DNA from: a virus
IMG/VR virus record: IMGVR_UViG_3300025892_002699
DNA length: 64,000 nucleotides
Direction: 5' to 3' (one strand)
Every line of letters starts with the position of its first letter. The first letter of the stretch is position 1. Positions 1,960 through 25,455 of the stretch are shown here, piece by piece. The notes under the pieces were generated by a model that did not search any database, was not told the DNA's origin, and saw nothing but the letters and a program-made list of their open reading frames with translations. A program made the translations under genes and the position numbers.

Positions 1960-2550
1960 ATGATAGTCCGAATTACAGGACACACAAAAGGCATAGGCAA
2001 GTGTTTACATGATGATCTAATTGCGGAAGGTCATGACGTTGTAGGTTATTCAAGAAGCAATGGCTTTGATATAAGCACTCCAAAATCCAGACAATTAATC
2101 GTAGAAGAATCCAAACAAGCAGATGTATTCATTAATTGTGCTTGGCCCGATGGTGATTTACCAATGACAAAACCTGAACAGTTTGATGGACAAACTGAAA
2201 TGCTCAAAGCAATGATTCAAACGTGGGAAGGCAATAAAGATAAAAAAATTTTAAATTTAAGTTCTAAATCCTGCTACAACGAATCCGACACAAACGACTT
2301 TATGGAAATGTATGGCAATGCCAAAAAAGAACAAAATAAAATTGTAGAAAATCGTATCAATGTGTATGGTCCACATATTCTTAATGTTATATTAGGATGT
2401 ACAGATACACAAATCAGCGAGTACATGCAAGGCAATAAGATTGACCCTAATGAACTTTCCAAGTGGATTATTAAAATGTTACTGTGTGAAACAATGTATT
2501 TTCAAAGTGTAACAATAGATGCCACACAATTAAATTATAAACCTAAATAG
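1960..2550 (+). CDS. Short-chain dehydrogenase/reductase (SDR)
   Basis: TGHTKGIG (TGxxxGxG), FINCA, LSS, catalytic YGNAK (YxxxK). Confidence 0.75.
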   Translation: MIVRITGHTKGIGKCLHDDLIAEGHDVVGYSRSNGFDISTPKSRQLIVEESKQADVFINCAWPDGDLPMTKPEQFDGQTEMLKAMIQTWEGNKDKKILNLSSKSCYNESDTNDFMEMYGNAKKEQNKIVENRINVYGPHILNVILGCTDTQISEYMQGNKIDPNELSKWIIKMLLCETMYFQSVTIDATQLNYKPK

Positions 2551-3685
2551 ATTTTTTCTGTTTTACTTTTGAATCGTCCCAACTTTTCCAAGTCCATTCT
2601 GTAACAGCATAATCAACTTGTTCAGGTTGAAACAAATATCGAGTTGGCACTGTGTCGTGTAAATTATAACCTTCATTTACCACAGCATCTCTCAACATAA
2701 TTTGATGTAGAAAATTAGTAACAGGTTTACCTGGTACAAAATCACACCAAGGACCACATTGTAATTGTTCCATGTCTATAGTTTTAGGATCACTCCATTG
2801 TATTATTCTATGAGTGATTCCATTTATTTTCACCATGTAATGATAAAGATTATCATCTGCTGGTTCTTTTTCCCAAGTCCATCCTTTACGATCGCAAATA
2901 TCTTTTATTAGTTGCACATGGTCACTTAAAAAGAACTGAGGTTCATCAGGAGATCGTCCTATATCAGAGCCTGCTCTAATTCTATATTGCCAGGCTTTGT
3001 TGCCTAATGACTGTATTTCTTCTAACACTTCTTCCATGTGTTCTAAATTTTCTAATGTATATCCTACATAATAAACAAAGATACCTTCAGCAATACAATT
3101 CTCAATTCCTTTTAATTGTTTTTCGTGTACTTTTTTACCTTGATAAGAGTGGTGATTCATTCCAATCATAACCATTCTAGTGCCTGCTTCAGCAATTTGC
3201 TTTACCCATTTTCTGTCAGATAGTTTTACACCATTTGTCAAAATACAAACATCTTCGGGTCTATTAAGTTTTTTTAGAAGTGCTTTAATTTGTTTTATTA
3301 ATTCCGGTAAATCTTTACGCACAGTTGGTTCAGCGCCTGCCAATATCACAGCACCGGCTTCTGCTGAAAATCTATTTTCTATTTGCCATAATATTTGTTC
3401 TATTGGTTTATCTGTGGTTTTATTATCTGGTTTATGATAACAGTGCGGACAATTCAAATTACATTTGTCTGTGACTTCCACCATAATGCCTTGTGGAATA
3501 GAATATCCTGATTTATCATATGTCAAATTGTTGTAAAATTCTTTGTTGGTTTCTACAAGGTAATCACTTACACCATGTTCTGGACAAGTTTTCACAAGAT
3601 GTATACCATCTTCTTTAGTTACTCTTTCTGCTTCACAGTGCCTATAACACACATGGCACAGACTGGTTGTTTTTGTATCTTGCAT
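2543..3685 (-). CDS. Radical SAM enzyme, Tes/GDGT-MAS (MJ0619)-like, with N-terminal rubredoxin-like domain
   Basis: TSLCHVC...KTCPEHG N-terminus; EVTDKCNLNCPHC (CxxxCxxC); AGAEPTVRKDLPELIK; TNGVKL. Confidence 0.8.
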   Translation of the reverse strand: MQDTKTTSLCHVCYRHCEAERVTKEDGIHLVKTCPEHGVSDYLVETNKEFYNNLTYDKSGYSIPQGIMVEVTDKCNLNCPHCYHKPDNKTTDKPIEQILWQIENRFSAEAGAVILAGAEPTVRKDLPELIKQIKALLKKLNRPEDVCILTNGVKLSDRKWVKQIAEAGTRMVMIGMNHHSYQGKKVHEKQLKGIENCIAEGIFVYYVGYTLENLEHMEEVLEEIQSLGNKAWQYRIRAGSDIGRSPDEPQFFLSDHVQLIKDICDRKGWTWEKEPADDNLYHYMVKINGITHRIIQWSDPKTIDMEQLQCGPWCDFVPGKPVTNFLHQIMLRDAVVNEGYNLHDTVPTRYLFQPEQVDYAVTEWTWKSWDDSKVKQKKSI

Positions 3686-3689
3686 AGTA

Positions 3690-4376
3690 TTACTTATAGA
3701 TAGAAATTGCTTTGTTTATAAATGAATCAGGATACACATTCCTAAAACTCTCCAAACACAATATTTGTAACTTGTCAAATGGATATGTTTTATTTGTTTC
3801 AATGCCTAATTCTTTCATTTTGGGTAATAGTTCTTTTTGTCTTTCTTGGGATATATGACTCATATGCTCCTGAACTGTGATAGCAGGTTCGTCTTGTTTG
3901 TATGCAAAGAAATAATTGATTGTTCTCAGTTCTCCATCAATTACAAAATAACTGCTGGGATGAAGACTGTATTTGTAGATGCCAAGTTTTTTGTGTGTTT
4001 CCATTATGTATAACATCTGTTCTTGCCAATTGGGCAACACATCTTCAAATGCTTTACCATGACTCTGTTCCCAAAAATCAACTCCTTGTATTTCAAAATA
4101 TATTTTTTGATCAACAGGATCAAAACGAGTTGTACGAGGAATTAATTGTTTGTAGTCTACATCTAATGTTAATAAAAAATCCTTTTCTCGTGTGTATTTC
4201 ATTTCCATTAACTTGGGATCAACCACTTCATTGTGACCTTTATGATATTCTGAATCATTATGAAACCACATACAAAATTCCGTAGCATCTTCATTTATCA
4301 AACTAGTGTAAATTAAATTGTTTCTACACAGACCTTTGCCAGGCACATTGTTGTAATAATATTTAAAATTAGTCAT
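3690..4376 (-). CDS. Protein-kinase-fold-like protein with degenerate catalytic loop; paralogue of 9365-9991
   Basis: RE..FL, IP, then HKKLGIYKYSLHPSSYFVIDGELRTINYFF aligns with the HxDLHxxN...IDF region of small-molecule/RIO-like kinases but lacks the Asp. Confidence 0.45.
   Translation of the reverse strand: MTNFKYYYNNVPGKGLCRNNLIYTSLINEDATEFCMWFHNDSEYHKGHNEVVDPKLMEMKYTREKDFLLTLDVDYKQLIPRTTRFDPVDQKIYFEIQGVDFWEQSHGKAFEDVLPNWQEQMLYIMETHKKLGIYKYSLHPSSYFVIDGELRTINYFFAYKQDEPAITVQEHMSHISQERQKELLPKMKELGIETNKTYPFDKLQILCLESFRNVYPDSFINKAISIYK
3691..3696 (-). promoter_or_regulatory. Putative late promoter core TAAGTA
   Basis: TATAAGTA on the minus strand, 5 nt before ATG 3685. Confidence 0.45.
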
Positions 4377-4941
4377 AAGTGGGCCACGTCTTCACTTGTT
4401 TTAATTGTTTAAAATATTCATCTGCATTAACACGCCACACTGTTTGTTGTGTGCCTCTATAATTTAATTCTTTCACTTTGGTGTAAACACCTATGCTTTC
4501 TAACGTTGGAGCAACAATTGAATGCACTAGACGTTGTGTGCCTTCTGCATTTTCATTTGTTGTAACATAATAGTTTTTATTAAAGCCTGCCCACATTATT
4601 CCTGCTGGTTGGAAAAATTGTTGGGTGGTTGTTTGATGAGTTTTTATAGTTTCACGAGTACGAACCATTTGATATTCTTTTGGCAATTCATCTGTAAATG
4701 TACATATGCGACAAGCAATACGATAACTGTCAGGACCCATTTCCGGAAACGAATGTGCCGCAGTGGATCCGATCACCTTGCCATTCCACAACAACATCCA
4801 AACCTGATATCTATCTTCTTTAGATAACGAATCTACCAACATTTTTTTGGTTGAATTGTTGACAAATCCTTTTTGGTCGGCTGTATGATAAAACGTTTCA
4901 AGATTTAACTTGTCTGAATATGGTACCAATTTAAAAGCCAT
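4369..4941 (-). CDS. GNAT-fold acyltransferase-like protein
   Basis: VWMLLWNGKVIGSTAAH...YRIACRICT beta-strand pattern typical of GNATs. Confidence 0.45.
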   Translation of the reverse strand: MAFKLVPYSDKLNLETFYHTADQKGFVNNSTKKMLVDSLSKEDRYQVWMLLWNGKVIGSTAAHSFPEMGPDSYRIACRICTFTDELPKEYQMVRTRETIKTHQTTTQQFFQPAGIMWAGFNKNYYVTTNENAEGTQRLVHSIVAPTLESIGVYTKVKELNYRGTQQTVWRVNADEYFKQLKQVKTWPTYD

Positions 4942-4959
4942 AATAAAATATCTGTACTG

Positions 4960-4975
4960 TATTTAAAAGTAAATA
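4960..4975. promoter_or_regulatory. Back-to-back late promoter cores (TAAATA on - at 4960-4965 and on + at 4970-4975)
   Basis: Divergent intergenic gap; the + copy lies 5 nt before ATG 4981. Confidence 0.5.
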
Positions 4976-4980
4976 CTTTG

Positions 4981-5787
4981 ATGATTAGAGGAATTGGCGG
5001 TCGTACATATATCAATTTAGACGAACACATAGACATAGAAGGTTTTAAACAACTGCATACAGAAATGTGTAGAGGTTTTGCTCTTGCTCGTGAATATGCC
5101 AAAGAAGGTACATGGATGTCTCCTGGTTTTGACACCAAAGACATGAGTTACACTTTGAATTGGAAACCAATTTACATGGCACTAGAAGAATACAAAGCAT
5201 TGCCAGAAGATCATCCAATTAGGAAAAATGGCGACGATATGTATTCCAATATAAAAGATTACAAGACACGTAATCAATTCACAAGATATCTTAAAGCAGT
5301 TTTAGGTGCTAACGATCCTTACATATATTATTTTTTATGGGAAGAAGGAGATTGGGATCATAGAAATACAGAAAGAAATATTACAGAAGAAGCAAAATAT
5401 TTTCCTGGTGTGGTTGCTTGGATTAAAGAATTAGTGAACACAGGTGTTATAGAAAGCATAGGCAGAGTAATATTTTTTCACTGTGAACATGATGGTAAAC
5501 CATTTGAACACAGAGATCTAGATGGTAAACACGGCGACAGTCAAGGATACACTGATCACCGTAATGAATTCATACACATAAGATACAGCACAAAAAGAGG
5601 ATTTTACATATGGGATCCTGAAGCAAAAAATAAAACTTACATCAATGCCAATGCGGCATTTTGGAATGATCAAGACTGGCATGGTGGTGATGTCAGCAAT
5701 GAACAAGAATACGGCTTACGAATTGATTGTGTGTTTACAGATAAATTTAGAAAGCAATTGGGCATAGATCATTTATCCAACTATTAA
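4981..5787 (+). CDS. 2OG-Fe(II) oxygenase / cupin-like protein
   Basis: GRVIFF...EHRD (HxD)...WHGG...LRID; ATG 4981 preferred over TTG 4978. Confidence 0.6.
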   Translation: MIRGIGGRTYINLDEHIDIEGFKQLHTEMCRGFALAREYAKEGTWMSPGFDTKDMSYTLNWKPIYMALEEYKALPEDHPIRKNGDDMYSNIKDYKTRNQFTRYLKAVLGANDPYIYYFLWEEGDWDHRNTERNITEEAKYFPGVVAWIKELVNTGVIESIGRVIFFHCEHDGKPFEHRDLDGKHGDSQGYTDHRNEFIHIRYSTKRGFYIWDPEAKNKTYINANAAFWNDQDWHGGDVSNEQEYGLRIDCVFTDKFRKQLGIDHLSNY

Positions 5788-5788
5788 A

Positions 5789-6400
5789 ATGTATCATCGA
5801 TATGTAAAAATACCTGTTGATCACAGAAAGCCTAGTTGCTTTTCATATCAGCCCTCACAGTCAGAAGTTATATTTGTTCCTAAAACAGATATTGATCAAT
5901 CAGTTATCAACTGGATTGAATCTTTTGATATAATTGTATCCAATGTGACTGAAGGTATCTATACACCTCCTAACAACGGAAAGGTTCACATACACAACGA
6001 TACAAGTACAATAACAAATGCAACAAAAATTAATTTTACATGGGGTCCTGATACCAGCACTACAAGGTGGTGGCGTGTAAAAGATGAGTCATTGTGTAAA
6101 ACAGACATCACTGACAGTTCACACATCACAGAAATAGTAAATCCAGACATTGTGGATCATTTTGATGGAAACAATCAGCATCGTGAATTAATTTGTGAAA
6201 GTGAACAGGATTGTGATATGGTGCATGAAAAGGTTATTAATCAGCCCAGTTTGATTAATGTTGGTCAACTGCATTCTACATACAATCCAGATCCCACACA
6301 TGGACGTTGGTCCTTGTGCTATTTTTTACTTAATAAAGATTATACTCATTTACAGTTTGAAAAAGCATTAAATATATTCAAGGGAGTTACATATGAATAA
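5789..6400 (+). CDS. 2OG-Fe(II) oxygenase / cupin-like protein (tandem paralogue A)
   Basis: IHND...INFTWG...PSLINVGQLHSTYN...RWSL. Confidence 0.65.
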   Translation: MYHRYVKIPVDHRKPSCFSYQPSQSEVIFVPKTDIDQSVINWIESFDIIVSNVTEGIYTPPNNGKVHIHNDTSTITNATKINFTWGPDTSTTRWWRVKDESLCKTDITDSSHITEIVNPDIVDHFDGNNQHRELICESEQDCDMVHEKVINQPSLINVGQLHSTYNPDPTHGRWSLCYFLLNKDYTHLQFEKALNIFKGVTYE

Positions 6401-7028
6401 AAACATATATCATCGTTATGTAAAATTGCCGTTTGAGCATAAGTTTCCAGATTGTTTTAAAACAAAGCCTGAAAATATGCGTGGCGAAAATTGGCATGAA
6501 TGGTGTGCTACAAGAGAGCATTGGGATGAAAGGTTTGTGGATTGGCTGAAAGAATATGGCTTGAAACCTTCAAATGTCTGTGAAGCATTTTACAATGGAC
6601 CTAATGGTGGTGGTTTACCTATGCACAATGACGCTCCAACTTTGAATAATTCATCAAACATAAATTTTACTTGGGGACCTCAAGACAGCATAGTAAGATG
6701 GTACAAAGTAAAAGATGAATCTTTAATTCAAACAGAAAGAGACAATACAGATTATCACAATGAGGTTTATTTTAAAGATGTAGATATTGACATTCCTGTG
6801 GACAAATTTTATCATGCAGAAGTTGAAGACTGTGATGTTGTGCATGAAGCAGTGATCAGTCAACCTAGTTTACTCAATGTTGGGCAATTGCATTCAACAC
6901 ATAATTTTAATACAAACGAACCACGTTGGACGTTAAGTTATCACTTGCTGACAATTGAAGACAACACACACATACAATTTGAAGATGCACTAGACTTATT
7001 CAAAGATCTAGCATACGAAAGTAATTAA
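6393..7028 (+). CDS. 2OG-Fe(II) oxygenase / cupin-like protein (tandem paralogue B)
   Basis: MHND...INFTWG...PSLLNVGQLHSTHN...RWTL; shares YHRYVK N-terminus with 5789-6400. Confidence 0.65.
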   Translation: MNKNIYHRYVKLPFEHKFPDCFKTKPENMRGENWHEWCATREHWDERFVDWLKEYGLKPSNVCEAFYNGPNGGGLPMHNDAPTLNNSSNINFTWGPQDSIVRWYKVKDESLIQTERDNTDYHNEVYFKDVDIDIPVDKFYHAEVEDCDVVHEAVISQPSLLNVGQLHSTHNFNTNEPRWTLSYHLLTIEDNTHIQFEDALDLFKDLAYESN

Positions 7029-7034
7029 TATTTT

Positions 7035-7589
7035 TTAGAAACGTCTAACATCAAGTGTAGAAATATACATTGATTCGTTAATAACATAATCAATTGTGCG
7101 TATAATATCTTGTGCAGTACATGTAGGCTCTCCACTTCGATCACCAGTTTTTTCGCCATAGTTTAATACTCTTACAAGACTAAACTTTAATTGCGAACCA
7201 AATGGAGTTTCATTTGCTATCACGTTGTGTACAGCATCTATGTGCTGTTTGTCTTTTAGGTATTGTTTGTCTATGCCTACTTGATCTAATAATTTTTTTG
7301 GAACTTTGGTTGCTAACGAACCTATTGTTATCACTTTCTGCAAAGGTGCGTCTTGAGTCCAACGTTGTTGTAACTTCATTAATAATGTGGATTGTGTAGT
7401 CCCCACGTGTGCCATGTTTAAAAATACATCTCTAGCCAACACTTCACTAACTGTGTCATTAATGCTGTCGGTGTTTGTTAAATCATATCCAGTGGCTCTG
7501 CTAATACCCAAACACTCGTGTGTTTTAGAATAATGTTCATACACATCTTTTCCCATAGGAGATGTATGTCCTGTGATTGCTATTCTCAT
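7035..7589 (-). CDS. SDR-family oxidoreductase
   Basis: IAITGHTSPMG, DVFLNMA, ITIGS, YLKDK (YxxxK); paralogue of 1960-2550. Confidence 0.65.
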   Translation of the reverse strand: MRIAITGHTSPMGKDVYEHYSKTHECLGISRATGYDLTNTDSINDTVSEVLARDVFLNMAHVGTTQSTLLMKLQQRWTQDAPLQKVITIGSLATKVPKKLLDQVGIDKQYLKDKQHIDAVHNVIANETPFGSQLKFSLVRVLNYGEKTGDRSGEPTCTAQDIIRTIDYVINESMYISTLDVRRF

Positions 7590-8164
7590 ATTACTGTAAA
7601 CCTCACAATTTGTATAAATCTGCTATCCTCTTCGAGACCTGATCCGTATTCTTCCAGTTCAAACATTATTGGATGCATTCCTCTGTAATAAAAATCTTTT
7701 TCAGCAAATATTCTTCTACCACCTTCTACTTTTTCATTTACTAATATTGCTTCACCATTCAGTTTGAAATGAAACATTTCATCAAGTATGCCAAATTTTT
7801 CATTAAAACTTTTGTAATCATCGTTGTTGGTTGTGTTTAAGTTGTAACAAAATTGAAAGTTCCAAGTATCTTCTTCTTTGCGGTTTAATTTTATTTCAGC
7901 ATTCAATTTAATACTTTCTTCATTGGCCCAAGTCTGTGTGTTGTCTAGTATTAATGTGTTGTTATCAAGCAGATCAATATCAACTGTACGTTTGATAAAA
8001 CCGTTCTCGGCAGTTTCTTTGCTTGATTGTATGTCTTTAAAAATATTGTTGTTGTTCCAATACACATTTAATTCATCTTTTAGAAGACCTTCTGATACAA
8101 ATTCATTTGCATCATAACTGGATCTCAGCAATGGAAAGTAATCAAATACAAGTTTCTTTTTCAT
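7586..8164 (-). CDS. Hypothetical protein
   Basis: 192-aa ORF with 4-nt overlaps to both neighbours. Confidence 0.55.
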   Translation of the reverse strand: MKKKLVFDYFPLLRSSYDANEFVSEGLLKDELNVYWNNNNIFKDIQSSKETAENGFIKRTVDIDLLDNNTLILDNTQTWANEESIKLNAEIKLNRKEEDTWNFQFCYNLNTTNNDDYKSFNEKFGILDEMFHFKLNGEAILVNEKVEGGRRIFAEKDFYYRGMHPIMFELEEYGSGLEEDSRFIQIVRFTVI

Positions 8165-8274
8165 AATATATCAAATGTTCCTAATATCATACAAACTAAT
8201 ACATAACCTAGGTAGCCTAATAGTAGATAGCCAACAATTCTTTCAGGCCAACTAAAAATATTCTTTTGTTTCAT
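8161..8274 (-). CDS. Small membrane peptide (37 aa)
   Basis: MKQKNIFSWPERIVGYLLLGYLGYVLVCMILGTFDIL; ATG right after the upstream stop at 8276 (the track's longer start overlaps the upstream gene). Confidence 0.45.
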   Translation of the reverse strand: MKQKNIFSWPERIVGYLLLGYLGYVLVCMILGTFDIL

Positions 8275-8275
8275 T

Positions 8276-8830
8276 TTATCTTTTAGTTCCAAAGAAGTTG
8301 AAGATGTATTTGGGTCTTTGTCCGCAGTTGGATCCGGCGTGCCAAGCATTTCTATCTGGCCATTTGTACACATCACCTGCTTTGGCATTGTAATACAAAT
8401 CATCTTCCACAATTAATACGTGTCCAGGGTGTGTATCTTCCATGTGTACATGAAATCTTTCTATGTTGTTTAATTTACATAGTTCTTCTTCGTTGTCCTG
8501 TGTGTCCCAGTGCCAAGGAGCATGATTTCCTTGATGCACAACACTAACCCAACAACTTAAAACATTAACTCCAACGTAATCTGCAAATTTGTCTACAACA
8601 CTTCTGTCAAAATTAGTTTCAGGTATACACATATCCCAACCAATTGTGCCGCCTTCCGATGCCAGTGTGTATCCTGCCTTGTCCCAAGACTCACTGATCT
8701 CTTTTATACCTGGAAGGTCATCTTGCTTGGTGTGTCTTGGTCCTTGATATGCTGGTTTAGAATTTTTTATGGATTCAACAACTGCATTCCAGTCTATAAC
8801 ATCACTACAATTTCCTACGTATTGTTTCAT
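8276..8830 (-). CDS. Asp/Asn beta-hydroxylase-like 2OG-Fe(II) oxygenase
   Basis: APWHWD (HxD), RFHV, WHAGSNCG..PKY. Confidence 0.7.
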   Translation of the reverse strand: MKQYVGNCSDVIDWNAVVESIKNSKPAYQGPRHTKQDDLPGIKEISESWDKAGYTLASEGGTIGWDMCIPETNFDRSVVDKFADYVGVNVLSCWVSVVHQGNHAPWHWDTQDNEEELCKLNNIERFHVHMEDTHPGHVLIVEDDLYYNAKAGDVYKWPDRNAWHAGSNCGQRPKYIFNFFGTKR

Positions 8831-9372
8831 TCTGCGTATGCTAGATAGTTAAAATTAAATTTAGGTACAAGTCCACAATTAGTGCCGCCATGATATGATT
8901 GAAAGTCGGGCCACTTGTGAACATCTCCTTGTTTTTGATTGTACAATGCTTCATCGCCTACTATGAACACATGTCCGGGTGCAGGTTCATTAATCATTGC
9001 TGTGAATCTTACAGGATTGCCTTGCTCTGTGTATTTTTTCCAATCAACGTCCCAATCCCAATGCCATGGAGCAGTTTTACCTGGATATATTTTAGATATC
9101 CAACTCTTGATCATTCTTGGAGCACCAACAAATTCACCAAACTTCTCAGCCACCTCCATTGAAAACTCATTGCCTGGATAATAGTTGATCCATTCTATAG
9201 ATTCTCTGTTGTAACTGCCTATAGTAGATAATGCATCATCAATCTCTTTTAATTCCGGTACATCTTTAACTGGAAGATATTTACAAGCAAGTTTACCTTC
9301 TTGATCCTGCACTTCTTTGATTATTGCATTCCAATCTAATATATCGTTACAGTTGCCTACAAATTCAAGCAT
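8827..9372 (-). CDS. Asp/Asn beta-hydroxylase-like 2OG-Fe(II) oxygenase (tandem paralogue)
   Basis: APWHWD, PGHVFIV, YHGGTNCG..PKF; shares VGNC.D..DWNA with 8276-8830. Confidence 0.7.
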   Translation of the reverse strand: MLEFVGNCNDILDWNAIIKEVQDQEGKLACKYLPVKDVPELKEIDDALSTIGSYNRESIEWINYYPGNEFSMEVAEKFGEFVGAPRMIKSWISKIYPGKTAPWHWDWDVDWKKYTEQGNPVRFTAMINEPAPGHVFIVGDEALYNQKQGDVHKWPDFQSYHGGTNCGLVPKFNFNYLAYAE

Positions 9373-9991
9373 TTAAAAAGTCTCCTGGCCACTCTGCATA
9401 ATTGGTTCTAATAGTTTCTTTGTACAATTCGTGAGTGTCTAATTGGTTGTTCATTATAAATTTATCAAATCTATCTGTTCTTATCAATGGTTTTAGATAT
9501 TTTATGTCAAGATATCTGTTGTCATTGTCTGTGCAACCATATAAATCCATACAGTGTGCTTCATTGTTATCATCAAAGTAAAAAGTATGAGGGTACATGT
9601 TAATTTTGTATATGTTTTGCTGTTCTAAATCTTGTTTTATTTGTTTAATTTTTTCTTTCCAATTGGGTATGTTGTCTATCTGATTGGTTTCAATCAAAAC
9701 ATTAAGATTTTTATTGTACCATTTGAATTTAATTTCTCTTTTAGCATAATCAATATCTAATAATTCTGGAATATATTTTGTGTCTTTTAATTTTGAAAGA
9801 TATACCACTTCTTGATCAAACCAGAAGTTGTATAATTCTTCATTCATAGATTCATTCTCAAAATAGTCGTTTGGATTCCAATTCATACAGAACACAGTGT
9901 TGTCTTCGCTGACAAGCGGTTGGTAAAGCATATTCGCCACAGCGAGTCCTTGTTTATGTTTATAAAAATGCTTCCAATTAGGCATACACAA
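9365..9991 (-). CDS. Protein-kinase-fold-like protein with degenerate catalytic loop
   Basis: QEVVYL..YIPELL; LEQQNIYKINMYPHTFYFD...CMDLYG; paralogue of 3690-4376. Confidence 0.45.
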   Translation of the reverse strand: MCMPNWKHFYKHKQGLAVANMLYQPLVSEDNTVFCMNWNPNDYFENESMNEELYNFWFDQEVVYLSKLKDTKYIPELLDIDYAKREIKFKWYNKNLNVLIETNQIDNIPNWKEKIKQIKQDLEQQNIYKINMYPHTFYFDDNNEAHCMDLYGCTDNDNRYLDIKYLKPLIRTDRFDKFIMNNQLDTHELYKETIRTNYAEWPGDFLNA

Positions 9992-10655: not shown

Positions 10656-10658
10656 TTG

Positions 10659-10702
10659 TACTTATCGTAAATTATAATGTGCGTAGTTAATAGCGATAAA
10701 TA
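10659..10702. promoter_or_regulatory. Divergent control region: TAAGTA (-, 10659-10664), 18-bp quasi-palindrome ATAATGTGCGTAGTTAAT (10674-10691), TAAATA (+, 10697-10702)
   Basis: Read directly from the sequence; the 18-mer recurs at 50973, 56873 and 63466. Confidence 0.55.
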
Positions 10703-10715
10703 GAAATGTCCATAT

Positions 10716-18022: not shown

Positions 18023-18665
18023 ACTTTTTTATACTCCTATCTAATAATGTGTTAAATTCAGTTCTTTTGTTGCCAATGTGTGCTTGAGCAATCATGTGTA
18101 TTCTTTCAACATTGGCGTTGTTTATTACTTGATGATCTTTTAATATATTAAGTAAAAATACTTTGCCATGTCTAAAAGGCACAAGACCGTGATCTTTAAT
18201 TTCCATATAACATAGAGCAGGGTGTAAAATAGCAACATTGATAGGAATCAGATATTCGCACAAATCTTCTGGCAATTCATGTCCTGGATTATCATTGTGC
18301 CAATCAATTCTTCCAGCAGGATCCAATTTCATAAATCTTATTCTACTGTATCTTTCAGCAGGAAATTTATCCCAAAACATTTTTACTGCCGGAGTCTCCT
18401 GTGACAACTGTGTCCATTTGTATGGAGCATTTAACTCATCATCATAACCATATTCTTTTGCCACCTGTGTTTTATCAATCCCCAATCCATGCAGACAACA
18501 ACTGCTCCATCCTTTGTGTGATTCATTCTCTCTGTGAGGCACATAATGTTTGTCCACTTTTGCTAATTCTTTGTCATCAACATACGGATTAAAATCCATA
18601 TCTAGTTCCAACCACGGCAGTGTACCGTCTTTGAATTTGTCAAAAACTCTAGTTGCTGTATCCAT
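18006..18665 (-). CDS. Asp/Asn beta-hydroxylase-like 2OG-Fe(II) oxygenase
   Basis: RIRFMKLDPAGRIDWHND...HQVINNANVERIHMI. Confidence 0.75.
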   Translation of the reverse strand: MDTATRVFDKFKDGTLPWLELDMDFNPYVDDKELAKVDKHYVPHRENESHKGWSSCCLHGLGIDKTQVAKEYGYDDELNAPYKWTQLSQETPAVKMFWDKFPAERYSRIRFMKLDPAGRIDWHNDNPGHELPEDLCEYLIPINVAILHPALCYMEIKDHGLVPFRHGKVFLLNILKDHQVINNANVERIHMIAQAHIGNKRTEFNTLLDRSIKKYGVRL

Positions 18666-19266
18666 CTTTTGCTCCTAATATCATAAATCTTTTGTATTTT
18701 TCTGTAACCAACTCGGAAGCAGATGAAACCTGCAATCCGCAATTTTTTTTAAATGATAATAAACTTTCATGACAGTTTACATGCTCTTTGTTATCAAAAT
18801 AATCATTGCTTTGTATTATAACCTGCGTTTGGTTAGGTAATTTTGCAATCCATTTATTGTATTCATCTTGCGTCATGTGTTCACAAGCAGTGTTTATTAT
18901 CACATTATGTTTGTGATAGTTTTTATAATCTAAAATGTTTTCTGTAATTGCTTGGAATTTACCAGACATTTCATAATCTTTGTTCATTGTGTTAGCAATA
19001 GATTCACATGCAGGGTCTTTGTCTATTGATGTTATTTTTACAATGTCTAATTCGCTGTTGAATAGCAATGTAGATAGCACTCCGTTCCAACCACCACACA
19101 CAACAATATTATATGGCAATCTTTGAAAATACTTCTGCAATGTTTCAATCAACCAAACTTTGCTGTTGATTTGTCCTTTCCAAAAACTTTCAAGAGTGCG
19201 ATACCTGTCATCAGATTGTCTAATAGCATCCATCCAATACAACACATCTTTAATATTAATTTTCAA
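18649..19266 (-). CDS. Class I SAM-dependent methyltransferase
   Basis: VVCGGWNGVL (motif I), SIDKDP (motif II), INTACEHM. Confidence 0.7.
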   Translation of the reverse strand: MKINIKDVLYWMDAIRQSDDRYRTLESFWKGQINSKVWLIETLQKYFQRLPYNIVVCGGWNGVLSTLLFNSELDIVKITSIDKDPACESIANTMNKDYEMSGKFQAITENILDYKNYHKHNVIINTACEHMTQDEYNKWIAKLPNQTQVIIQSNDYFDNKEHVNCHESLLSFKKNCGLQVSSASELVTEKYKRFMILGAKDGYSN

Positions 19267-20242
19267 ATTGAGCTCCTAGTTTATCAAAAGATCCACATTG
19301 TTTACCACATTCTTGTAATGGTGAGTGACCCCAAGTTTTTTCAATCTTATCAAAGTATCCATTATCAAATATTTCTTTTAAACTGTTTTTATTTAGGTTA
19401 GGAAATTCTCCAATTCTTGTCATGTAGTCTATTCTGCTTTCTTGCATAGGAGGAATCCATTCCATATCTAACCAACAACAAGGTGAAACATTGCCACAGG
19501 CACTCACGTACAACTGACTGTTTTTCACTGCTTTACACACAATGGTTGGCGTGGTTTCTTTTTGCGACTGTTCAATTAATGGAATCATGTCATTGCTTTT
19601 TTGTGTAGGTTCTAATTTATGCAAAGGTTTTCCTTGCTCATCTATAACTTGTAAACTATCATTTTTAAATCTAGAAGTGTGTTTTGTAGAAAACATTTTA
19701 AATCCTAGGTCTTTGCTCATTTGTTCTGCTTCTTCCACTTGATGTTCGTTGTGTTTGAACACCAACATGTGCCATTTAGCAAATCCTCCAGCGGCAATAA
19801 ATGCTTTTGCGTTCTCAATAATTTTATCAAAGTTTGTGGATATTCTATAAAGATGATTGGTGTCTGATAGTCCATCTAAACCAAAAGTAACTTTCACTCT
19901 TTCTTGTGCTAATTTTGTCCACCATTCAGGATCTCTAGCACTGCCATTTGTGTGCATCGCAAGTCTTATAGCGGGATTAGTTGCTCTAAGGTGTTGATAT
20001 ATTTCCAGTGTGTCTTTGCTTACAATAGGATCTCCTAAGTTACCACACATAAACATACTGTCTATTTGTTTTATAAAATCTTCAGGAAACCATTTTTTAA
20101 ATGTGTCCAATGTTATTTCATCCAGATGTATGAAAGGATTTAATGGACCTCCTTGTATTCTTCTAGGACACATAGGACATTTGGCTTGACATTTACTCGT
20201 AATTTCTAAATGAACATCTTTTATGTCTGTAAGTTTATACAT
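19256..20242 (-). CDS. Radical SAM enzyme with C-terminal SPASM/twitch-like domain
   Basis: EITSKCQAKCPMC; GNLGDP; HTNGS; VCKA..PCC..CGKQCG. Confidence 0.85.
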   Translation of the reverse strand: MYKLTDIKDVHLEITSKCQAKCPMCPRRIQGGPLNPFIHLDEITLDTFKKWFPEDFIKQIDSMFMCGNLGDPIVSKDTLEIYQHLRATNPAIRLAMHTNGSARDPEWWTKLAQERVKVTFGLDGLSDTNHLYRISTNFDKIIENAKAFIAAGGFAKWHMLVFKHNEHQVEEAEQMSKDLGFKMFSTKHTSRFKNDSLQVIDEQGKPLHKLEPTQKSNDMIPLIEQSQKETTPTIVCKAVKNSQLYVSACGNVSPCCWLDMEWIPPMQESRIDYMTRIGEFPNLNKNSLKEIFDNGYFDKIEKTWGHSPLQECGKQCGSFDKLGAQFEN

Positions 20243-21338
20243 TTGTTCTTTCCTTTTTAAATAATTTTGATTGCTTACGACTAATTTCCATTATAACTTC
20301 TTCATTTTCTATGGCTTCTAATTTGTCTAACTCCCTTGATTTAGGAATTTTACTATCAGCAGAACTGACGCAAGTTGGTGTGATACACTTGTTAGGATTT
20401 TTAAATAATTGAAATCCTCCATCAATTGTTCCCAACGGTTCATCATGACAACTGTATGCTCTTTTAATTTCACCACCCGGCTCTCTTACAATACAACTTT
20501 GATATCCTGCATTACAAGTCCAGCCTTTAAACTTATTGAAGCCAAATGCGTTGAACCTTTCTGCTTGATCTAGTTCATAGAAGTTTTCTTTGTGATCCAT
20601 AAGTTTTATTTGACCAATTGTTGAACCATCATTTTTCTTTAATGGAAATCCTGTTTTCATTAATTCTATTTGTTCATCACTGTAACCTGTCACAATTTCA
20701 CTTGCTGATTCATTGCTTTGTGGTTTTAGTGTAACATTTATTCCTCTATCGTTGAATCTTTTACATCTATCATATAGTTCATCAAACAAGTCTGGAACCA
20801 TTACTTGGTTAATTGTAACATAGACGCCTGCATTTTGCAACATCAAAAGTTTGTCTCCAAAAGTTTGTTCATCTGCAAACTCATGATGATAACTTGCTGT
20901 AATACTTCTACGCATGAGAGATTCTGTGGCTTTAAGCCAAGTGTTCCACCATTTTATTCCCGGTGAACAATTTGTTGTCATGTGAATACTTTGGTATTTG
21001 CTTCTATCATCTGAAGCATAATGTCCAATTAAAGGTAAAAATCTTTTGTATGCTGTTGGTTCTCCACCTGAAAAACTAAAATGGAAACTGTTAAACCCAT
21101 TACTTCTTGCTTGTGATTTTATTTCATCCATTGTCTTTTTGTAAACGTCTAATGGTCGATGGTCTAATTTTTTAGAATGGGCATAAGGCCAACAGTATGA
21201 GCAATCATAATTACAGAATCTACTCAATATCCAACTCACATTAAACACGTTCTTCCATATCATGGTGCGTTGTCCGAATTGAACAATGTTATCAAATGGT
21301 ATTTTAGTAGTAGGTACTGACACTGCAGGTCTCCTCAA
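20235..21338 (-). CDS. Radical SAM enzyme with C-terminal Cys-rich domain
   Basis: SRFCNYDCSYC; FSGGEPT; TTNCS; GWTCNAG..YSC..CITPTC. Confidence 0.85.
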   Translation of the reverse strand: MRRPAVSVPTTKIPFDNIVQFGQRTMIWKNVFNVSWILSRFCNYDCSYCWPYAHSKKLDHRPLDVYKKTMDEIKSQARSNGFNSFHFSFSGGEPTAYKRFLPLIGHYASDDRSKYQSIHMTTNCSPGIKWWNTWLKATESLMRRSITASYHHEFADEQTFGDKLLMLQNAGVYVTINQVMVPDLFDELYDRCKRFNDRGINVTLKPQSNESASEIVTGYSDEQIELMKTGFPLKKNDGSTIGQIKLMDHKENFYELDQAERFNAFGFNKFKGWTCNAGYQSCIVREPGGEIKRAYSCHDEPLGTIDGGFQLFKNPNKCITPTCVSSADSKIPKSRELDKLEAIENEEVIMEISRKQSKLFKKERTNV

Positions 21339-21993
21339 AATGTTTTTTTAACCAATCAAAATTATTGATATAATTCAATTTGTCTTTGTTTTCTATGCCA
21401 AATTTTTTACCAGACTTTGCTCCTTCAATTGCAAAATCACCATAAGGTCTATCTGCACCTTTACTACACCATACATCTAATCTTTGTTCTGTTTCTTTAT
21501 CCTCTTGTCTATCGATCACTTTCGAACTTAATTTTACACACTCCCTAAAAGCACTTTTCCAAGCACTGAAAGGATCTGAATTAAATGCTGTGATGTTTGA
21601 TACTTGTTTTATTGCTTTAAAATTTTTAGAAATGCTTGTGGTCATGTCTGTTGTATCTGTGTCTAGTGCTAATGTTAAGTTCTTTGGCAATAGTTTTACT
21701 CCACCATATCCATACTGTAAATCATTGATCGGATTACGACTCTGCCACACATGAACTGTTTCTAAATTGTATTGATCTACATCATAATCAAAATTAAAAT
21801 CATTTACAATTTGTGCGTCAGCATCAACTACCCAAAACATTTTTGTAACAGATGTTTTTGCGGCTTCAATGTGTGCTTGATGAATACCTTTTACTCCTTG
21901 TACACGTTGAGCAATAGGGAATCGTTCACACAAAGTTTTATAATTATGATCTGCTAATGCTTCGTTGTAACTTATAAACACAATATCGTACAT
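21304..21993 (-). CDS. GT-A fold glycosyltransferase-like protein
   Basis: DIVFISYNE, GVKGIHQAH, WVVDAD (DxD), YGGVKL, AWKSAFRE. Confidence 0.6.
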   Translation of the reverse strand: MYDIVFISYNEALADHNYKTLCERFPIAQRVQGVKGIHQAHIEAAKTSVTKMFWVVDADAQIVNDFNFDYDVDQYNLETVHVWQSRNPINDLQYGYGGVKLLPKNLTLALDTDTTDMTTSISKNFKAIKQVSNITAFNSDPFSAWKSAFRECVKLSSKVIDRQEDKETEQRLDVWCSKGADRPYGDFAIEGAKSGKKFGIENKDKLNYINNFDWLKKHFEETCSVSTYY

Positions 21994-22901
21994 TATAATG
22001 TTTTCCTCATTATTCTTGGAGTATTAAGATAAACCTTTTTAAAAAATTTGCTTTGTTCCACAGTTAATGGTTCAATAGGCAGTTCAATGTCATGTTCGTT
22101 AATAATCTTTTTGCCTAAGTCAATACTGTCTTTATAAAAATCAACTTTAATGTCATCATGAAGTTCAAACTTCCAATACTTTTCAAAATATCTATATTCA
22201 TTTGCCTGACTAAAGTCCCAATCTGTACACATTGTAAGATAACAACCTGTCCTAGCACCATGAATAGCATGAATGCCGTAAGTGTTATCCATGCCCACTG
22301 TCATCCAGACAAGTAATCGTTGATAATTTTGCCACCATAAGTCTTTTGGTGCTTGTCTAACATTTTTATCCAAACTCATTTTTACACCTTCTCTAAATCC
22401 TGCTCTCCAGGCTTGGTAAGCAGATCCATCTATGTAACTGGTTGAATAGTTATCGTTGAATTGATAGTAATTAGGAAAATGACAAAATTCTATTACATTT
22501 TTATTGTTACTTCCTTCTAATCCATCATGATTCTCATGTGTTTTCATATTTTTAACAAAGTCCTTGGTCCAACATTTTAAACTGCCATTGCCATATTTTA
22601 AACCATTTAGATCAATATTGCCGCACCAACTGAATTGATAGGTGTTGTCTACGCCTAACGATTTTAAATCTACTATTACATTAAGAAAGTCTTCATGCAC
22701 CTGCGTATCTGCATCCACTGTTATAAATCTTTCTGTGTCAGATATCTCTGCCGCTTTTTTATGTGCTGTGTCAAAGCCTTTTACGCCATGCACACGTTTT
22801 GCCCAAGGGATTTTTCTTTTTAAATCAGCAAAATTTTTTTCAGCATTGGGCTCATCCACACTTAAAAATACAAAATCCATTTCAGATATCTTTAAAATCA
22901 T
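21993..22901 (-). CDS. GT-A fold glycosyltransferase-like protein (paralogue)
   Basis: DFVFLSVDE, GVKGFDTAH, ITVDAD (DxD), YGNGSLK, AWRAGFRE. Confidence 0.6.
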   Translation of the reverse strand: MILKISEMDFVFLSVDEPNAEKNFADLKRKIPWAKRVHGVKGFDTAHKKAAEISDTERFITVDADTQVHEDFLNVIVDLKSLGVDNTYQFSWCGNIDLNGLKYGNGSLKCWTKDFVKNMKTHENHDGLEGSNNKNVIEFCHFPNYYQFNDNYSTSYIDGSAYQAWRAGFREGVKMSLDKNVRQAPKDLWWQNYQRLLVWMTVGMDNTYGIHAIHGARTGCYLTMCTDWDFSQANEYRYFEKYWKFELHDDIKVDFYKDSIDLGKKIINEHDIELPIEPLTVEQSKFFKKVYLNTPRIMRKTL

Positions 22902-23494
22902 TGCGTTACCTCATATGAATAATTGTAAATCTTACGACAAAACAATCTGGGCGTGGCAGTTGAATTATGATCAATCTGCATATTACCATTTGTGCATAGT
23001 TCTGACAAGTCGATATTGAATGAATAATCAAGCACACTGGTGTTATCTGCCGGTGTAGTAAAAAATTTAAACATATTATTTTTTTGTGTTACTGTTTTTT
23101 GAATCAAGTCTTTTAATTCATCATCGATACTGATATTCCATTTTTTATTTTTTAAGTCTAGCATAAATCTAATACATGAATCTTTATCATTTTTTACTAT
23201 CTCATACACTGTTTTGTTTATGTGATCGACTTTTTCTATTTCTGTTTGAGTTTTAGCATTGACAACATACTTAGATTCCACAATATACTCATTATTTTTA
23301 AATGTAACTTTGTAGTCTGCTAAATGCTTTGATCCTACATGTATTTGATCTGCTAATTCTTTTGTAATTTCTACACTGTGACCTTGTTTTTGAACACTGC
23401 AACCTAGCACCTCATCAGTTTCCGGATCAAAATGGAAATAAAAATTAACTTTAGGTCGTATTACATCAAATTCTAGTGGAGGTCTTATTTTCAT
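22898..23494 (-). CDS. Hypothetical protein
   Basis: 198-aa ORF with 4-nt overlaps inside the GT operon. Confidence 0.55.
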   Translation of the reverse strand: MKIRPPLEFDVIRPKVNFYFHFDPETDEVLGCSVQKQGHSVEITKELADQIHVGSKHLADYKVTFKNNEYIVESKYVVNAKTQTEIEKVDHINKTVYEIVKNDKDSCIRFMLDLKNKKWNISIDDELKDLIQKTVTQKNNMFKFFTTPADNTSVLDYSFNIDLSELCTNGNMQIDHNSTATPRLFCRKIYNYSYEVTQ

Positions 23495-24318
23495 TGTAGA
23501 TGCTCCAACACTTGGTCTGTTAAAAAATTATCTTCAACATAATGGAATAATCCAGATTGTTTTATATTACCTACAAATAACTCAGATTGCGAATTGAGAT
23601 TGTAATCAAGTTGTTCAGTCCATAAATTCATCTGGCTTTGATAGTTCTGTATTTTAGGTTTCATGTGCGTAAACGTTAAATTGTTATGTTTGCTGAAAAC
23701 CTTATGCTGGATTCCTAGTATCTTTATTGCTATGGCAGTGGCAACATCCATACTGCACCAGGATTGTGTTTTATTTTTTGTAAAACGTTTGCTGTACAAT
23801 TCATAATTTGTAACAATGTCTTTTAACAAGTTAAAAAATATTTCATTGTTCTTACATTTTTGAAAATAATGAAATCCACAATACACATTAGGTAATGAAT
23901 TTTCAACAAATACTTTTCTATAATAATCACTTGTTACCCAATCATTTCTATAAGTTTTAACTTTATCTGTATAATATAATTCATATTGACTCAATTGTTT
24001 CCACCAATGATCAATGTTTTGCAACAATAACATATCCACGTCTAACACAATAGATTGATCAAATGGACTTATGTGATATATTTTACACCTATTATTCACT
24101 TTCCAGTCATTGTCTACTGCTAGATCTTCTCCAGGTATATCTTTAATAAAGTTAAAATGTTTTTGATATTCTTTTGGAACATCAATGTCCGTGATTAAAC
24201 ATACCTGTTCATTAGGCATAAATTTTTTAATACTGAGACTACAAGCGACAGCCTGCTTTAGATAATCACAAGCATCGTTCTTCTGTACAAATAATATAAA
24301 GCCTCTATTCAATTTCAT
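23491..24318 (-). CDS. GT8-like glycosyltransferase
   Basis: DYLKQAVACSLSIK, SPFDQSIVLDVD (DxD), FTHMK, LFHY. Confidence 0.65.
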   Translation of the reverse strand: MKLNRGFILFVQKNDACDYLKQAVACSLSIKKFMPNEQVCLITDIDVPKEYQKHFNFIKDIPGEDLAVDNDWKVNNRCKIYHISPFDQSIVLDVDMLLLQNIDHWWKQLSQYELYYTDKVKTYRNDWVTSDYYRKVFVENSLPNVYCGFHYFQKCKNNEIFFNLLKDIVTNYELYSKRFTKNKTQSWCSMDVATAIAIKILGIQHKVFSKHNNLTFTHMKPKIQNYQSQMNLWTEQLDYNLNSQSELFVGNIKQSGLFHYVEDNFLTDQVLEHLQ

Positions 24319-25117
24319 CTATAATTTTATTCAATCCTATTTTATTCATTATGTGTATATTCATATCTTTTATTTGACACTTGATGCCTCGTTCAAATGT
24401 AAAATTCCATTTGTTGTCCACATAGGAATCTACACTATCTTTATCTGTCACATAAAACAGTTTACTAGGCAACTGTTTGGGCCAATTAGTTTTAGCAAAA
24501 TCATTAATTGTGTGAATTGCTATGGCAAACGCAAAGTCATTTCTATAAATTGTGTTCCCAATTTGATATTTGAATCTGTAAAATTCCCATTCATTTTTTA
24601 TATGATTAATTAATTCAAATAAAATTTTAGTTCTTTCAGTTTTTTTAAAATAAAACACTGTGGCCCAACACATTTCAATACCAGTATCACTGACATATTT
24701 CATTTCTTCAGTGTATCTAGATTCAAAATCTATGTGTTGTGCTTTGTAGTTGATTAGGAAATCTTCTTTACTGTGGAATACTTTGTTAAGATTGCTATTT
24801 GCCACAATGTAATCTGTATCCATTACAATTGTTTCATCATATGGAGATAAAGAATAAGCATCAGGTCTTGAAGTGTTGTTCCAAAAATCTTTGTAACGTG
24901 CTGTTGCATTATTAAAAGTTTTTGTTTGATTAGTTGATGGCTTGTCTACCACAATAACATGATTAAAATTGTTATGATCTTCGTTAAATTTGTCTGATGT
25001 GATTAAACACACTGGCAAATCAAGATGCTTTTTTATCTGTCCTGCACAAAAGTTTGCCTGTTTAACATAGTCCACAGTGCTATTGTTATGTGCAAAAAGT
25101 AAAACTCCTTTTGACAT
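24305..25117 (-). CDS. GT8-like glycosyltransferase (paralogue)
   Basis: DYVKQA, SPYDETIVMDTD (DxD), RNDFAFAIA, HIMNK. Confidence 0.65.
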   Translation of the reverse strand: MSKGVLLFAHNNSTVDYVKQANFCAGQIKKHLDLPVCLITSDKFNEDHNNFNHVIVVDKPSTNQTKTFNNATARYKDFWNNTSRPDAYSLSPYDETIVMDTDYIVANSNLNKVFHSKEDFLINYKAQHIDFESRYTEEMKYVSDTGIEMCWATVFYFKKTERTKILFELINHIKNEWEFYRFKYQIGNTIYRNDFAFAIAIHTINDFAKTNWPKQLPSKLFYVTDKDSVDSYVDNKWNFTFERGIKCQIKDMNIHIMNKIGLNKIIDEIE

Positions 25118-25119
25118 GA

Positions 25120-25455
25120 TTAGATCTCACCTTTATCTTTCACTATTTGATTATATTCTACAAAATATTGATTAAGATTGCGTTGATACAAGTCAGTAAT
25201 ATCGCTGTGAAAGGATTTAATGTCTGTAATTTTCACAGGAAGTTTATAATCATCAAGGAAGATTGCTTCATTAGTTTTCTTAATGTTCATTAGTGTTAAC
25301 GAATAATTGATAAGGTTTAAATCAACAGTGAATTGGTGTCCTTGAGTGTATAAGATATTGTTCTCAAGACATTTTTCTTTTAACAATTTTATTTGATTGT
25401 TAAATGTTTTTAGACGCTGTGCGTATTCCAAAGATTTTGATAAGGATTCATCCAT
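25120..25455 (-). CDS. Hypothetical protein, first gene of the GT/radical SAM operon
   Basis: 111-aa ORF downstream of a sigma70-like promoter. Confidence 0.55.
   Translation of the reverse strand: MDESLSKSLEYAQRLKTFNNQIKLLKEKCLENNILYTQGHQFTVDLNLINYSLTLMNIKKTNEAIFLDDYKLPVKITDIKSFHSDITDLYQRNLNQYFVEYNQIVKDKGEI

Follow-up and report, generated by a model that had tools for sequence, protein, structure and literature searches.

An island of sugar-related enzyme genes is wedged between the tail-fiber genes of a virus known from IMG/VR record IMGVR_UViG_3300025892_002699, of which a stretch of 64,000 nucleotides (the window) was analyzed. The enzyme block (positions 1960-25455, ∼23.5 kb) comprises 31 open reading frames (ORFs), mostly overlapping or a few bases apart, in agreement with an initial annotation that had described about 30 tightly packed genes. 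Because of the enzyme families it encodes, the neighbors of homologous genes in bacteria and its four to five transferase-like genes, the block is probably devoted to tailoring a glycan or sugar, irrespective of what accepts it. More tentatively, and with somewhat less than even confidence, we favor a soluble cytoplasmic pathway that builds and edits a sugar-based decoration, most likely on the phage fiber or other virion proteins; an acceptor of this kind is preferred because of the position behind fiber genes in phages from marine to soil habitats, a promoter box shared with structural genes and the lack of membrane components. In such a pathway, a PF05118 hydroxylase (18006-18665) and its glycosyltransferase (GT)-A-like/methyltransferase-like partner (16637-18022) would prepare or start the attachment site, and two GT8-like and two GT-A transferases, encoded next after the fiber genes, would extend a short glycan. 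Seven radical S-adenosylmethionine (SAM) enzymes would then perform C-H chemistry on its sugars (oxidation, epimerization, deoxygenation or C-methylation), and cupins and kinase-fold, short-chain dehydrogenase/reductase (SDR)-like, PP-loop, methyltransferase-like and SGNH-like proteins may add or remove further groups.

Fiber genes border the island on both sides, as originally proposed. On the left, 855-1955 (plus strand; ATAAATA box at 817) encodes a fiber-type protein with an Mtd_N domain (PF18454, 47.3 bits against a cutoff of 26.3), a domain of receptor-binding fibers. The right flank (25505-32133, minus strand) holds a conserved neighbor (25505-26371) and tail-fiber/collar genes (26387-32133), each behind an ATAAATA box; 26387-27865 matches tail-fiber PHROGs, and 30103-32133 has a tail Collar domain (PF07484). 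The island DNA had no near-identical match among 50,697 phage records, and PHROGs returned almost nothing for 20 island proteins.

The same enzymes are linked to one another, and in several cases to fiber genes, in other viruses. Searching viral contigs twice yielded 144 loci, and over 140 contigs of marine viruses carry the island core. Among 61 loci of ≥18 kb, covered for 10 kb on each side of the anchor so that all counts are lower bounds, the 9978-type cupin was found in at least 60, the radical SAM protein with a SPASM domain in at least 57, the kinase-fold family in at least 56, the 8276-type cupins and the PP-loop protein in at least 54 each, and the methyltransferase-like protein in at least 52. 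Island genes stay together down to ∼35% identity; their order is shuffled between lineages and is the same as here in loci L003, L014 and L118. In L039/L043, a complete genome of 357 kb that carries eight copies of the radical SAM family N_Twi_rSAM, Mtd_N fiber genes adjoin the island; they are also found in its vicinity in L060, L071 and L139.

Among cultured phages, tblastn detected island proteins only in Ralstonia phage RsoM2USA and Vibrio phages K566/K567 (distant N_Twi_rSAM copies), plus a weak mycobacteriophage match; queries with 16637, 20235 and 9978 gave no match, and the transferase block was found only in RsoM2USA (MG752970). There, ORFs 347-355 keep the gene order of the island directly behind a fiber-like gene: this fiber-like gene (ORF355), a homolog of the gene at 25120, two GT8 genes, one further ORF, a GT-A gene, N_Twi_rSAM, a second GT-A gene and a methyltransferase-like gene, with 28 to 45% identity to island proteins, and the adjacent ORFs 356-364 encode virion and baseplate proteins (PMC8504454). 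This version of the island is smaller: it has one or two genes for radical SAM enzymes and lacks a cupin/kinase block in its vicinity, and all of its genes are annotated as hypothetical; the paper that describes the phage contains no glycan data (PMC8504454). RsoM2USA nonetheless provides a culturable entry point. It is also worth noting that in K566 (L145) a gene annotated as the lipid A acyltransferase PagP (21715-22164) lies ∼4 kb from the radical SAM cluster, a hint that clusters of this kind may be connected with envelope lipids in some phages.

Four island operons and the structural genes have the same class of promoter. The box RTAARTA occurs at 14 sites on both strands of the window, and 10 of them lie ≤31 nt before a same-strand gene start, five before structural genes and four heading island operons. 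For ATAAATA, six of eight sites are ≤31 nt before a gene start, including 855, 25505, 26387, 32137, 47448 and the island operon beginning at 10716, and the gene starts 3685, 4981 and 10655 are each preceded, at a distance of 3 to 5 nt, by an ATAAGTA or GTAAATA box. The TAA(A/G)TA core that several sub-operons had been said to share with the structural genes is thus shared far beyond chance. With this rare box in common, the island enzymes would be made together with virion parts, and by analogy with T4 the class might be termed “late”. Phage glycosyltransferase genes beside structural genes reportedly glycosylate the virions of mycobacteriophages, as Freeman is said to have found in 2023. Several smaller features of these boxes were apparent. 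Only 48 copies of TAA[AG]TA are present on the two strands of the 64-kb window (64% A+T), and the motif is seemingly avoided outside promoter positions, as would suit a strong late-type promoter core. The boxes at 3697-3685, 4969-4981, 10665-10655 and 60812-60826 lie 3 to 7 nt before the start codon with no visible Shine-Dalgarno sequence, unlike those of the structural genes, which sit 18 to 31 nt upstream; genes with the shorter spacing look like sources of leaderless or near-leaderless transcripts. One ATAAATA box (56859-56871) falls inside the first codons of an ORF called from TTG at 56871, and this gene probably starts further downstream.

The largest operon (17 genes, 25455 to 14487) is headed by a sigma-70-type promoter (TTGACT-N17-TATAAT, 25468-25496, minus strand) that matches 11 of 12 hexamer positions and is the best on its strand between 20001 and 34000. 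Eight distinct relatives retain the two hexamers but differ in spacer and flanks. A general sigma-70 scan gave no excess over shuffled sequence (95 versus 88; 65 versus 59), and from it this conserved site alone was used. Transcription of the operon could start at this host-type promoter, and transcripts from the box ahead of 25505 could also continue into it.

No hydrophobic 19-residue stretch above 1.6 was present in any of the 31 island proteins, and the whole pathway is therefore taken to be soluble; no membrane protein, flippase, polymerase, exporter or polyprenyl-phosphate transferase was recognized among them. A Wzx/Wzy or ABC-type surface polysaccharide locus was rejected on the same ground. 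These observations bear on a different acceptor, the host envelope, in which lipopolysaccharide (LPS) core, lipid A or another surface glycan would be altered at the cytoplasmic face, changing the receptor and blocking superinfection by competing phages. Such remodeling is unlikely in our view, though not for want of candidates: GT8 is a family of LPS-core transferases, the kinase-fold proteins have LPS counterparts in WaaP and KdkA, and PF05118 includes LpxO. One bacterial cluster of homologs contains a KdoO-family hydroxylase (PF11004, 26.8 bits against 25), tandem multi-pass membrane proteins flank the cluster in bacterial locus L152, and the bacterial homologs as a group lack fibers. Expression from a conserved sigma-70-type promoter at the head of the transferase/radical SAM operon would also suit it, and modification of the O-chain is what the authors describing analogous islands in pelagimyophages favored (PMC7029224). 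Set against these are the structural-gene box on four island operons, the missing membrane, flippase, polymerase and polyprenyl-phosphate transferase functions, the distance of Wzx and Bac_transf genes from the radical SAM clusters in three Bdellovibrionota genomes, and a constant position behind fiber genes, shared by marine phages and a Ralstonia phage from soil.

A decoration of virion proteins, the acceptor that we prefer, has several points against it. The conserved sigma-70-type promoter heads the largest operon and would permit it to be expressed early, which is what takeover of the host would call for. Each of the GT8, kinase-fold and PF05118 families includes members that act on LPS. 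No enzyme-to-fiber fusion was found, no nucleotide-sugar synthesis genes were recognized in the island, and in a 270-kb relative (G005) the Mtd_N gene lies ∼30 kb away from it. Bdellovibrionota with 12 to 22 N_Twi_rSAM copies have no Mtd_N gene, so the core chemistry has no obligatory link to phage fibers. The N-terminal domain of the hydroxylase partner, finally, matches glycosyltransferases and GlmU-type sugar nucleotidyltransferases equally well (Z of 9 to 10). The initial annotation had proposed a dedicated pathway for decorating virions or remodeling the envelope; enzyme set, position and promoter boxes agree with a dedicated pathway tied to the fiber genes, whose acceptor may be virion protein, host envelope glycan or a small molecule.

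The gene at 18006-18665 (minus strand) encodes a member of the Asp/Arg (PF05118) family of iron/2-oxoglutarate (Fe/2OG) hydroxylases, with both a score above the cutoff (28.8 against 22.6 bits) and the HxD...H iron triad (invariant H123, D125 and H178). It has no membrane segment; LpxO, a PF05118 enzyme that acts on lipid, has one, and OlsC likewise has a lipid substrate. The adjacent gene at 16637-18022 (minus strand, 461 amino acids [aa]) overlaps it by 17 nt, and its product had no sequence match to any family. In an AlphaFold2 (AF2) model (pLDDT 89.5) this protein consists of a GT-A/nucleotidyltransferase-like N-domain and a class-I methyltransferase-like C-domain. Residues 9-225 adopt a GT-A/nucleotide-diphospho-sugar fold (VIA Z of ∼10) with structural matches to STIV A197, the LH3 accessory domain, PBCV-1 A64R and mimivirus R699, and residues 220-428 a class-I methyltransferase-like fold (VIA Z of ∼8.8) that matches NNMT and CheR. 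In Bdellovibrionales loci L148 and L150 the hydroxylase and the GT-A/methyltransferase-like protein form one polypeptide of 740 to 808 aa with PF05118 at the N terminus, and the same hydroxylase fusion occurs in a 688-aa viral cluster of the protein atlas. Because the genes overlap here and are fused in bacteria and in the viral cluster, the hydroxylase, GT-A-like and methyltransferase-like modules probably act as one unit (a complex prediction for the two island proteins scored 0.00, which is not evidence either way). The order of events initially suggested, hydroxylation followed by glycosylation, fits this arrangement.

LH3 (PLOD3) and mimivirus L230/R699 follow the same logic, with a GT-A-type domain coupled to an Fe/2OG hydroxylase (PMC5802723, PMC9546862). 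The likeness is one of logic only: the island hydroxylase is of the PF05118 rather than the PLOD type, its partner has an additional methyltransferase-like domain, and the part of LH3 that is matched is the accessory domain (residues 293-542), with GlmU-type nucleotidyltransferases scoring equally. An LH3/PLOD-type bifunctional enzyme was accordingly rejected, given the PF05118 hydroxylase and the tie with nucleotidyltransferases, and no collagen-like substrate for the island hydroxylase was seen.

Two pairs of genes for glycosyltransferases or glycosyltransferase-like proteins follow the fiber genes on the minus strand. The first pair (21304-21993 and 21993-22901; paralogous, with invariant D57 and D59) was modeled as GT-A enzymes (AF2 pLDDT of ∼89), with a Foldseek probability of 1.0 to WrtF, RmlT, ppGalNAc-T and PBCV-1 A64R and TM scores of 0.35 to 0.43 to several GT2-type enzymes. 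The second pair (23491-24318 and 24305-25117; paralogous, with invariant D93 and D95) is GT8-like; the single proteins have no Pfam match, and the family profile matches glycogenin-1 (GT8; E 1e-5) over the N-terminal 100 residues only. All four had been described as GT-A proteins with a DxD motif, an assignment that structure supports for the first pair and the glycogenin profile for the second as a likeness to GT8. Between the pairs lies a 198-aa protein (22898-23494, minus strand) with no family match, whose position is kept in RsoM2USA, and the long operon begins with a 111-aa protein (25120-25455, minus strand) that is conserved between fiber and GT8 genes (28% identity in RsoM2USA). Viruses that glycosylate their virions (mycobacteriophages, PBCV-1 with A64R, and mimivirus with its fibrils [PMC9614988]) place soluble GT-A enzymes with structural genes, as here, and A64R is among the structural matches for the 21304/21993 model as well as for the N-domain of 16637-18022. 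Those systems, however, consist of few transferases and sugar-nucleotide enzymes and, unlike the island, have no radical SAM arrays or multiple cupin oxygenases. A marine phage proteomics paper held nothing on fiber glycans (PMC12014285).

Seven island proteins pass the radical SAM model PF04055 (39 to 71 bits against a gathering cutoff of 29.5) and carry CxxxCxxC, exactly as first annotated, and this motif is kept in 0.98 to 1.00 of homologs in the five radical SAM families checked. SPASM/twitch-like Cys domains had been assigned to six of the seven, which is plausible: Pfam SPASM matches three (12027-13538 and 15376-16692, both N-terminal, and 19256-20242, C-terminal), and three others have conserved C-terminal Cys. 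Two are N_Twi_rSAM (N-terminal twitch radical SAM) proteins, copy 1 (12117-13538, plus strand) scoring 395.2 bits over positions 1-397 of model NF033640 and copy 2 (15376-16650, minus strand) 326.9 bits over positions 2-397, against a cutoff of 170. In this pair the SPASM match (residues 64-142 and 25-85) precedes the radical SAM core, and C25, C43, C44, C82 and C85 are invariant in 13 sequences. The longest ORFs of the two genes (from 12027 and from 16692) overlap their neighbors by 100 and 55 nt; the NF033640 model begins at residues 60 and 22, and the real starts are therefore probably 12117 and 16650. NF033640 is a catalogued family that shares CxxxCxxC and the five invariant N-terminal Cys with both island copies. 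It has no assigned substrate or reaction, and the island copies differ in their phage setting and in being paired with short radical SAM paralogs. These paralogs all match PF04055 and have a conserved C-terminal Cys cluster: copy 1 at 13535-14497 (plus strand; C254, C301 and C307), copy 2 at 14487-15383 (minus strand; C237, C280 and C285) and copy 3 at 20235-21338 (minus strand; C275, C297, C318 and C323), with three to four Cys kept in 43 to 51 homologs each. The other two radical SAM proteins are 19256-20242 (minus strand; PF04055, C-terminal SPASM PF13186) and 2543-3685 (minus strand; PF04055 71 bits, PF23545 47 bits; ATAAGTA-N5-ATG start), which has an N-terminal Zn ribbon and belongs to the MJ0619/Tes/TrsS superfamily, with the TrsS and Tes models scoring far under their cutoffs. 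Radical SAM enzymes are oxygen-sensitive, and it is a puzzle that seven of them are kept by a phage of apparently largely oxygenated marine waters.

Since most characterized SPASM enzymes act on peptides, and the weaker NCBIfam matches are to peptide maturases, these proteins might instead mature a ribosomally synthesized and post-translationally modified peptide (RiPP) or cross-link structural proteins, with no sugar involved. We consider this very improbable. No precursor peptide was seen in the island, where genes abut or overlap with no free intergenic room and no small conserved candidate; its sole small ORFs are 25120-25455, which is not Cys-rich, and frames overlapping real genes. No RiPP recognition element, protease or exporter was recognized, four or five GT-like genes are present, and the nearest solved relatives of N_Twi_rSAM are mixed (GDGT-MAS, SkfB, BlsE and MoaA). 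A RiPP biosynthetic cluster was rejected, as no precursor gene lies next to a maturase.

The cupins and the remaining proteins would supply further steps of the sugar-tailoring pathway that we prefer. Seven proteins with HxD...H fall into five families, the motif being invariant in each; all had been called oxygenases, and Pfam backs just 18006-18665 and, weakly, the Asp_Arg_Hydrox-like cupin at 9978-10655 (minus strand; PF05118 17.7 bits, below the cutoff), which heads the operon from 10655 to 7035 behind an ATAAGTA box. Comparison of the PF05118 (18006) family with the other cupin families by hhalign gave a signal for the 9978 family only (E 2.6e-4). The others are a highly conserved cupin candidate (4981-5787, plus strand; invariant H177, D179, H199 and H234; GTAAATA-N5-ATG start), two tandem paralogs at 5789-6400 and 6393-7028 (plus strand; 42% identity; invariant H69, D71 and H162) and two at 8276-8830 and 8827-9372 (minus strand; 35% identity; invariant H107, D109 and H164 in 24 sequences). 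No hhalign signal linked the 4978 family to the bacterial KdoO-like protein, and PDB profile searches with families 16637, 21304, 18649, 4369, 8276/8827 and 4978 gave no usable match. Of the two SDRs annotated earlier, the short SDR/epimerase-like protein at 1960-2550 (plus strand), 4 nt after the fiber gene, matches PF01370 (29.4 bits against 20.9), and 7035-7589 (minus strand) is its paralog over the N terminus only (36% identity over 61 aa). The two kinase-fold candidates (3690-4376 and 9365-9991, both minus strand) are paralogs (E 5e-10), and the kinase label is weak, with a family profile that matches Ser/Thr protein kinases at E ∼1e-3. For the methyltransferase-fold candidate (18649-19266, minus strand) the label is similarly weak (7 of 20 homologs touch Methyltransf_25 and 4 of 20 Spermine_synth). 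The supposed SGNH hydrolase (11510-12127, plus strand) is a candidate on motifs only (FGCSYAYG ... DDMHP), of which the block I motif recurs in bacterial neighbors of the cluster. The supposed GNAT (4369-4941, minus strand) is a conserved 190-aa protein without a Pfam or PDB profile match, of which one to two of 12 homologs touch GNAT/FeeM weakly, and a 192-aa protein (7586-8164, minus strand) has no family match.

The plus-strand operon is headed, behind an ATAAATA box at 10696, by a PP-loop ATPase (10716-11522, plus strand) with invariant SxSGGxDS and a C-terminal CxxCxxC (C250, C253 and C256). It had been named QueC-like, and of this the PP-loop part is firm; the resemblance to QueC is a weak PHROG match (E 4e-4), beside a weak match to TilS_N (E 4e-3). 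With its QueC-like C-terminal CxxCxxC, this protein raises the idea that PP-loop, kinase-fold, GT and radical SAM proteins together build a modified base on phage DNA, for which we see hardly any chance. No DpdA/TGT, FolE, QueD or QueE match was found in the island and QueC equivalog models went unmatched, the island is embedded in the structural module and uses promoters of the structural type, and the same core occurs in bacterial chromosomes as 30-kb arrays. A 7-deazaguanine or thymidine hypermodification cluster was rejected, there being no Pfam/NCBIfam match in the island to its defining enzymes, such as hmdU kinase and aGPT-Pplase for the thymidine type.

The enzyme mix also resembles aminoglycoside clusters, with BtrN-like twitch radical SAM proteins, an APH-like kinase fold and an acyltransferase candidate, completed by SDRs, Fe/2OG oxygenases, GTs and a methyltransferase. 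The product might then be a free small molecule derived from sugar (of the aminoglycoside, aminocyclitol or modified nucleotide-sugar type) that, for example, inhibits competitors or reprograms the host. Bacterial clusters add a TobZ/NodU-type carbamoyltransferase (and, by eye only, amidinotransferase- and aminotransferase-like ORFs), and a trio of radical SAM, amidinotransferase and AHBA_syn genes in a cultured cyanophage has been termed “antibiotic synthesis genes” (PMC12801897). Four or five GT-like genes with a fixed link to fiber genes fit a polymer or protein acceptor better, and no scaffold-forming enzyme (2-deoxy-scyllo-inosose or inositol-phosphate synthase) and no exporter was recognized in the island, making such a molecule quite improbable.

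The nearest described counterpart of the island is the host recognition cluster (HRC) of pelagimyophages and cyanomyophages, an island in the tail-fiber region with GT8-type GTs and radical SAM cassettes (PMC7029224, Zaragoza-Solas et al. 2020); Asp/Asn beta-hydroxylase is a core phage gene in the pelagimyophage setting, and the HRC was described without a function (PMC7029224). The island fits that description, being a variable set of enzymes among tail-fiber genes with GTs and radical SAM cassettes. The HRC, however, belongs to T4-like phages and lies between VrlC and gp14, whereas the island is in a jumbo phage whose baseplate hub (51707-53191; only the hub was compared) is nearest the PA5oct/Rak2 type, with 35% identity to Pseudomonas phage PA5oct and 31% to Rak2/GAP32-type jumbo phages. 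Island proteins are nearly absent from cultured phages, and the likeness may therefore be one of analogy. The earlier statement that no characterized pathway has such a composition holds, as fiber-linked islands have been described without function (PMC7029224), and no published study of a radical-SAM-rich island in jumbo phages was found. Enzyme islands at fiber genes in pelagimyophages and cyanomyophages, and virion glycosylation in mycobacteriophages, are thus already known; how the hydroxylase partner folds and is fused, the promoter-box statistics, the conserved sigma-70 site, the expansion in copy number in Bdellovibrionota and the separation of bacterial clusters from Wzx-type loci are new here. 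Fiber-linked enzyme islands are common in abundant marine phages and have no established product or acceptor. If fibers are decorated, a layer of glycan that is overlooked when hosts are predicted from genomes would govern phage host range and escape from neutralization or defense.

A genome scan with the N_Twi_rSAM alignment returned 176 relatives, mostly from Bdellovibrionota. Three Bdellovibrionota genomes had ∼12, 13 and 22 copies above the cutoff, and 14 model genomes had none. The bacterial loci combine tandem N_Twi_rSAM arrays with homologs of 20235, 19256, 18006/16637, 18649 and 21304/21993, and their neighbors encode a NodU/TobZ-type carbamoyltransferase, an AsnB-like amidotransferase, a KdoO-family hydroxylase and a GT28-like transferase, which are sugar-handling families. 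In the three genomes, PF05118 genes lie inside or near the radical SAM clusters, and Wzx and Bac_transf genes are far away. Fiber-like adhesins beside the bacterial clusters were considered and found no support, as the Mtd_N-type motif was absent both there and in the three genomes as a whole. It is conceivable, though rather doubtful, that aquatic jumbo phages and predatory Bdellovibrionota share an enzymology in which a protein glycan is started by the hydroxylase-GT-A/methyltransferase unit and rewritten through C-H chemistry, by rapidly diversifying arrays of N-terminal-twitch radical SAM enzymes, into a variable coat on prey-contact structures (in phages, the fibers); if true, radical-tailored glycoproteins would form a class not seen before, and host range would be controlled at an additional level. 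N_Twi_rSAM is a large family (up to 22 copies per bacterial genome and eight per phage) with no known reaction, and any assignment would open new radical SAM sugar chemistry.

Some further observations concern these loci and the flanks of the island. In the Bdellovibrionia genome behind locus L153 (G002, contig C1, 745-775 kb), ∼15 N_Twi_rSAM copies above the cutoff lie within 30 kb, an extreme local expansion of the family, and the array encloses two PF05118 genes. In the Bdellovibrionales locus L152 (2579-7022), three tandem multi-pass membrane paralogs of ∼480 to 500 aa stand directly before the N_Twi_rSAM array; they have no Pfam match and are of GT-C/ArnT type by eye only. In the window, the left-flank fiber protein (855-1955) has four-residue repeats (TGNV TGNV TGDL TGSS TGNH) at residues ∼105-135 (1150-1300), which may be structural or a candidate site of modification, and the tail/baseplate module contains an ORF of 4,891 aa (32773-47448), whose counterpart in RsoM2USA (>288 kDa) was found in virions (PMC8504454).

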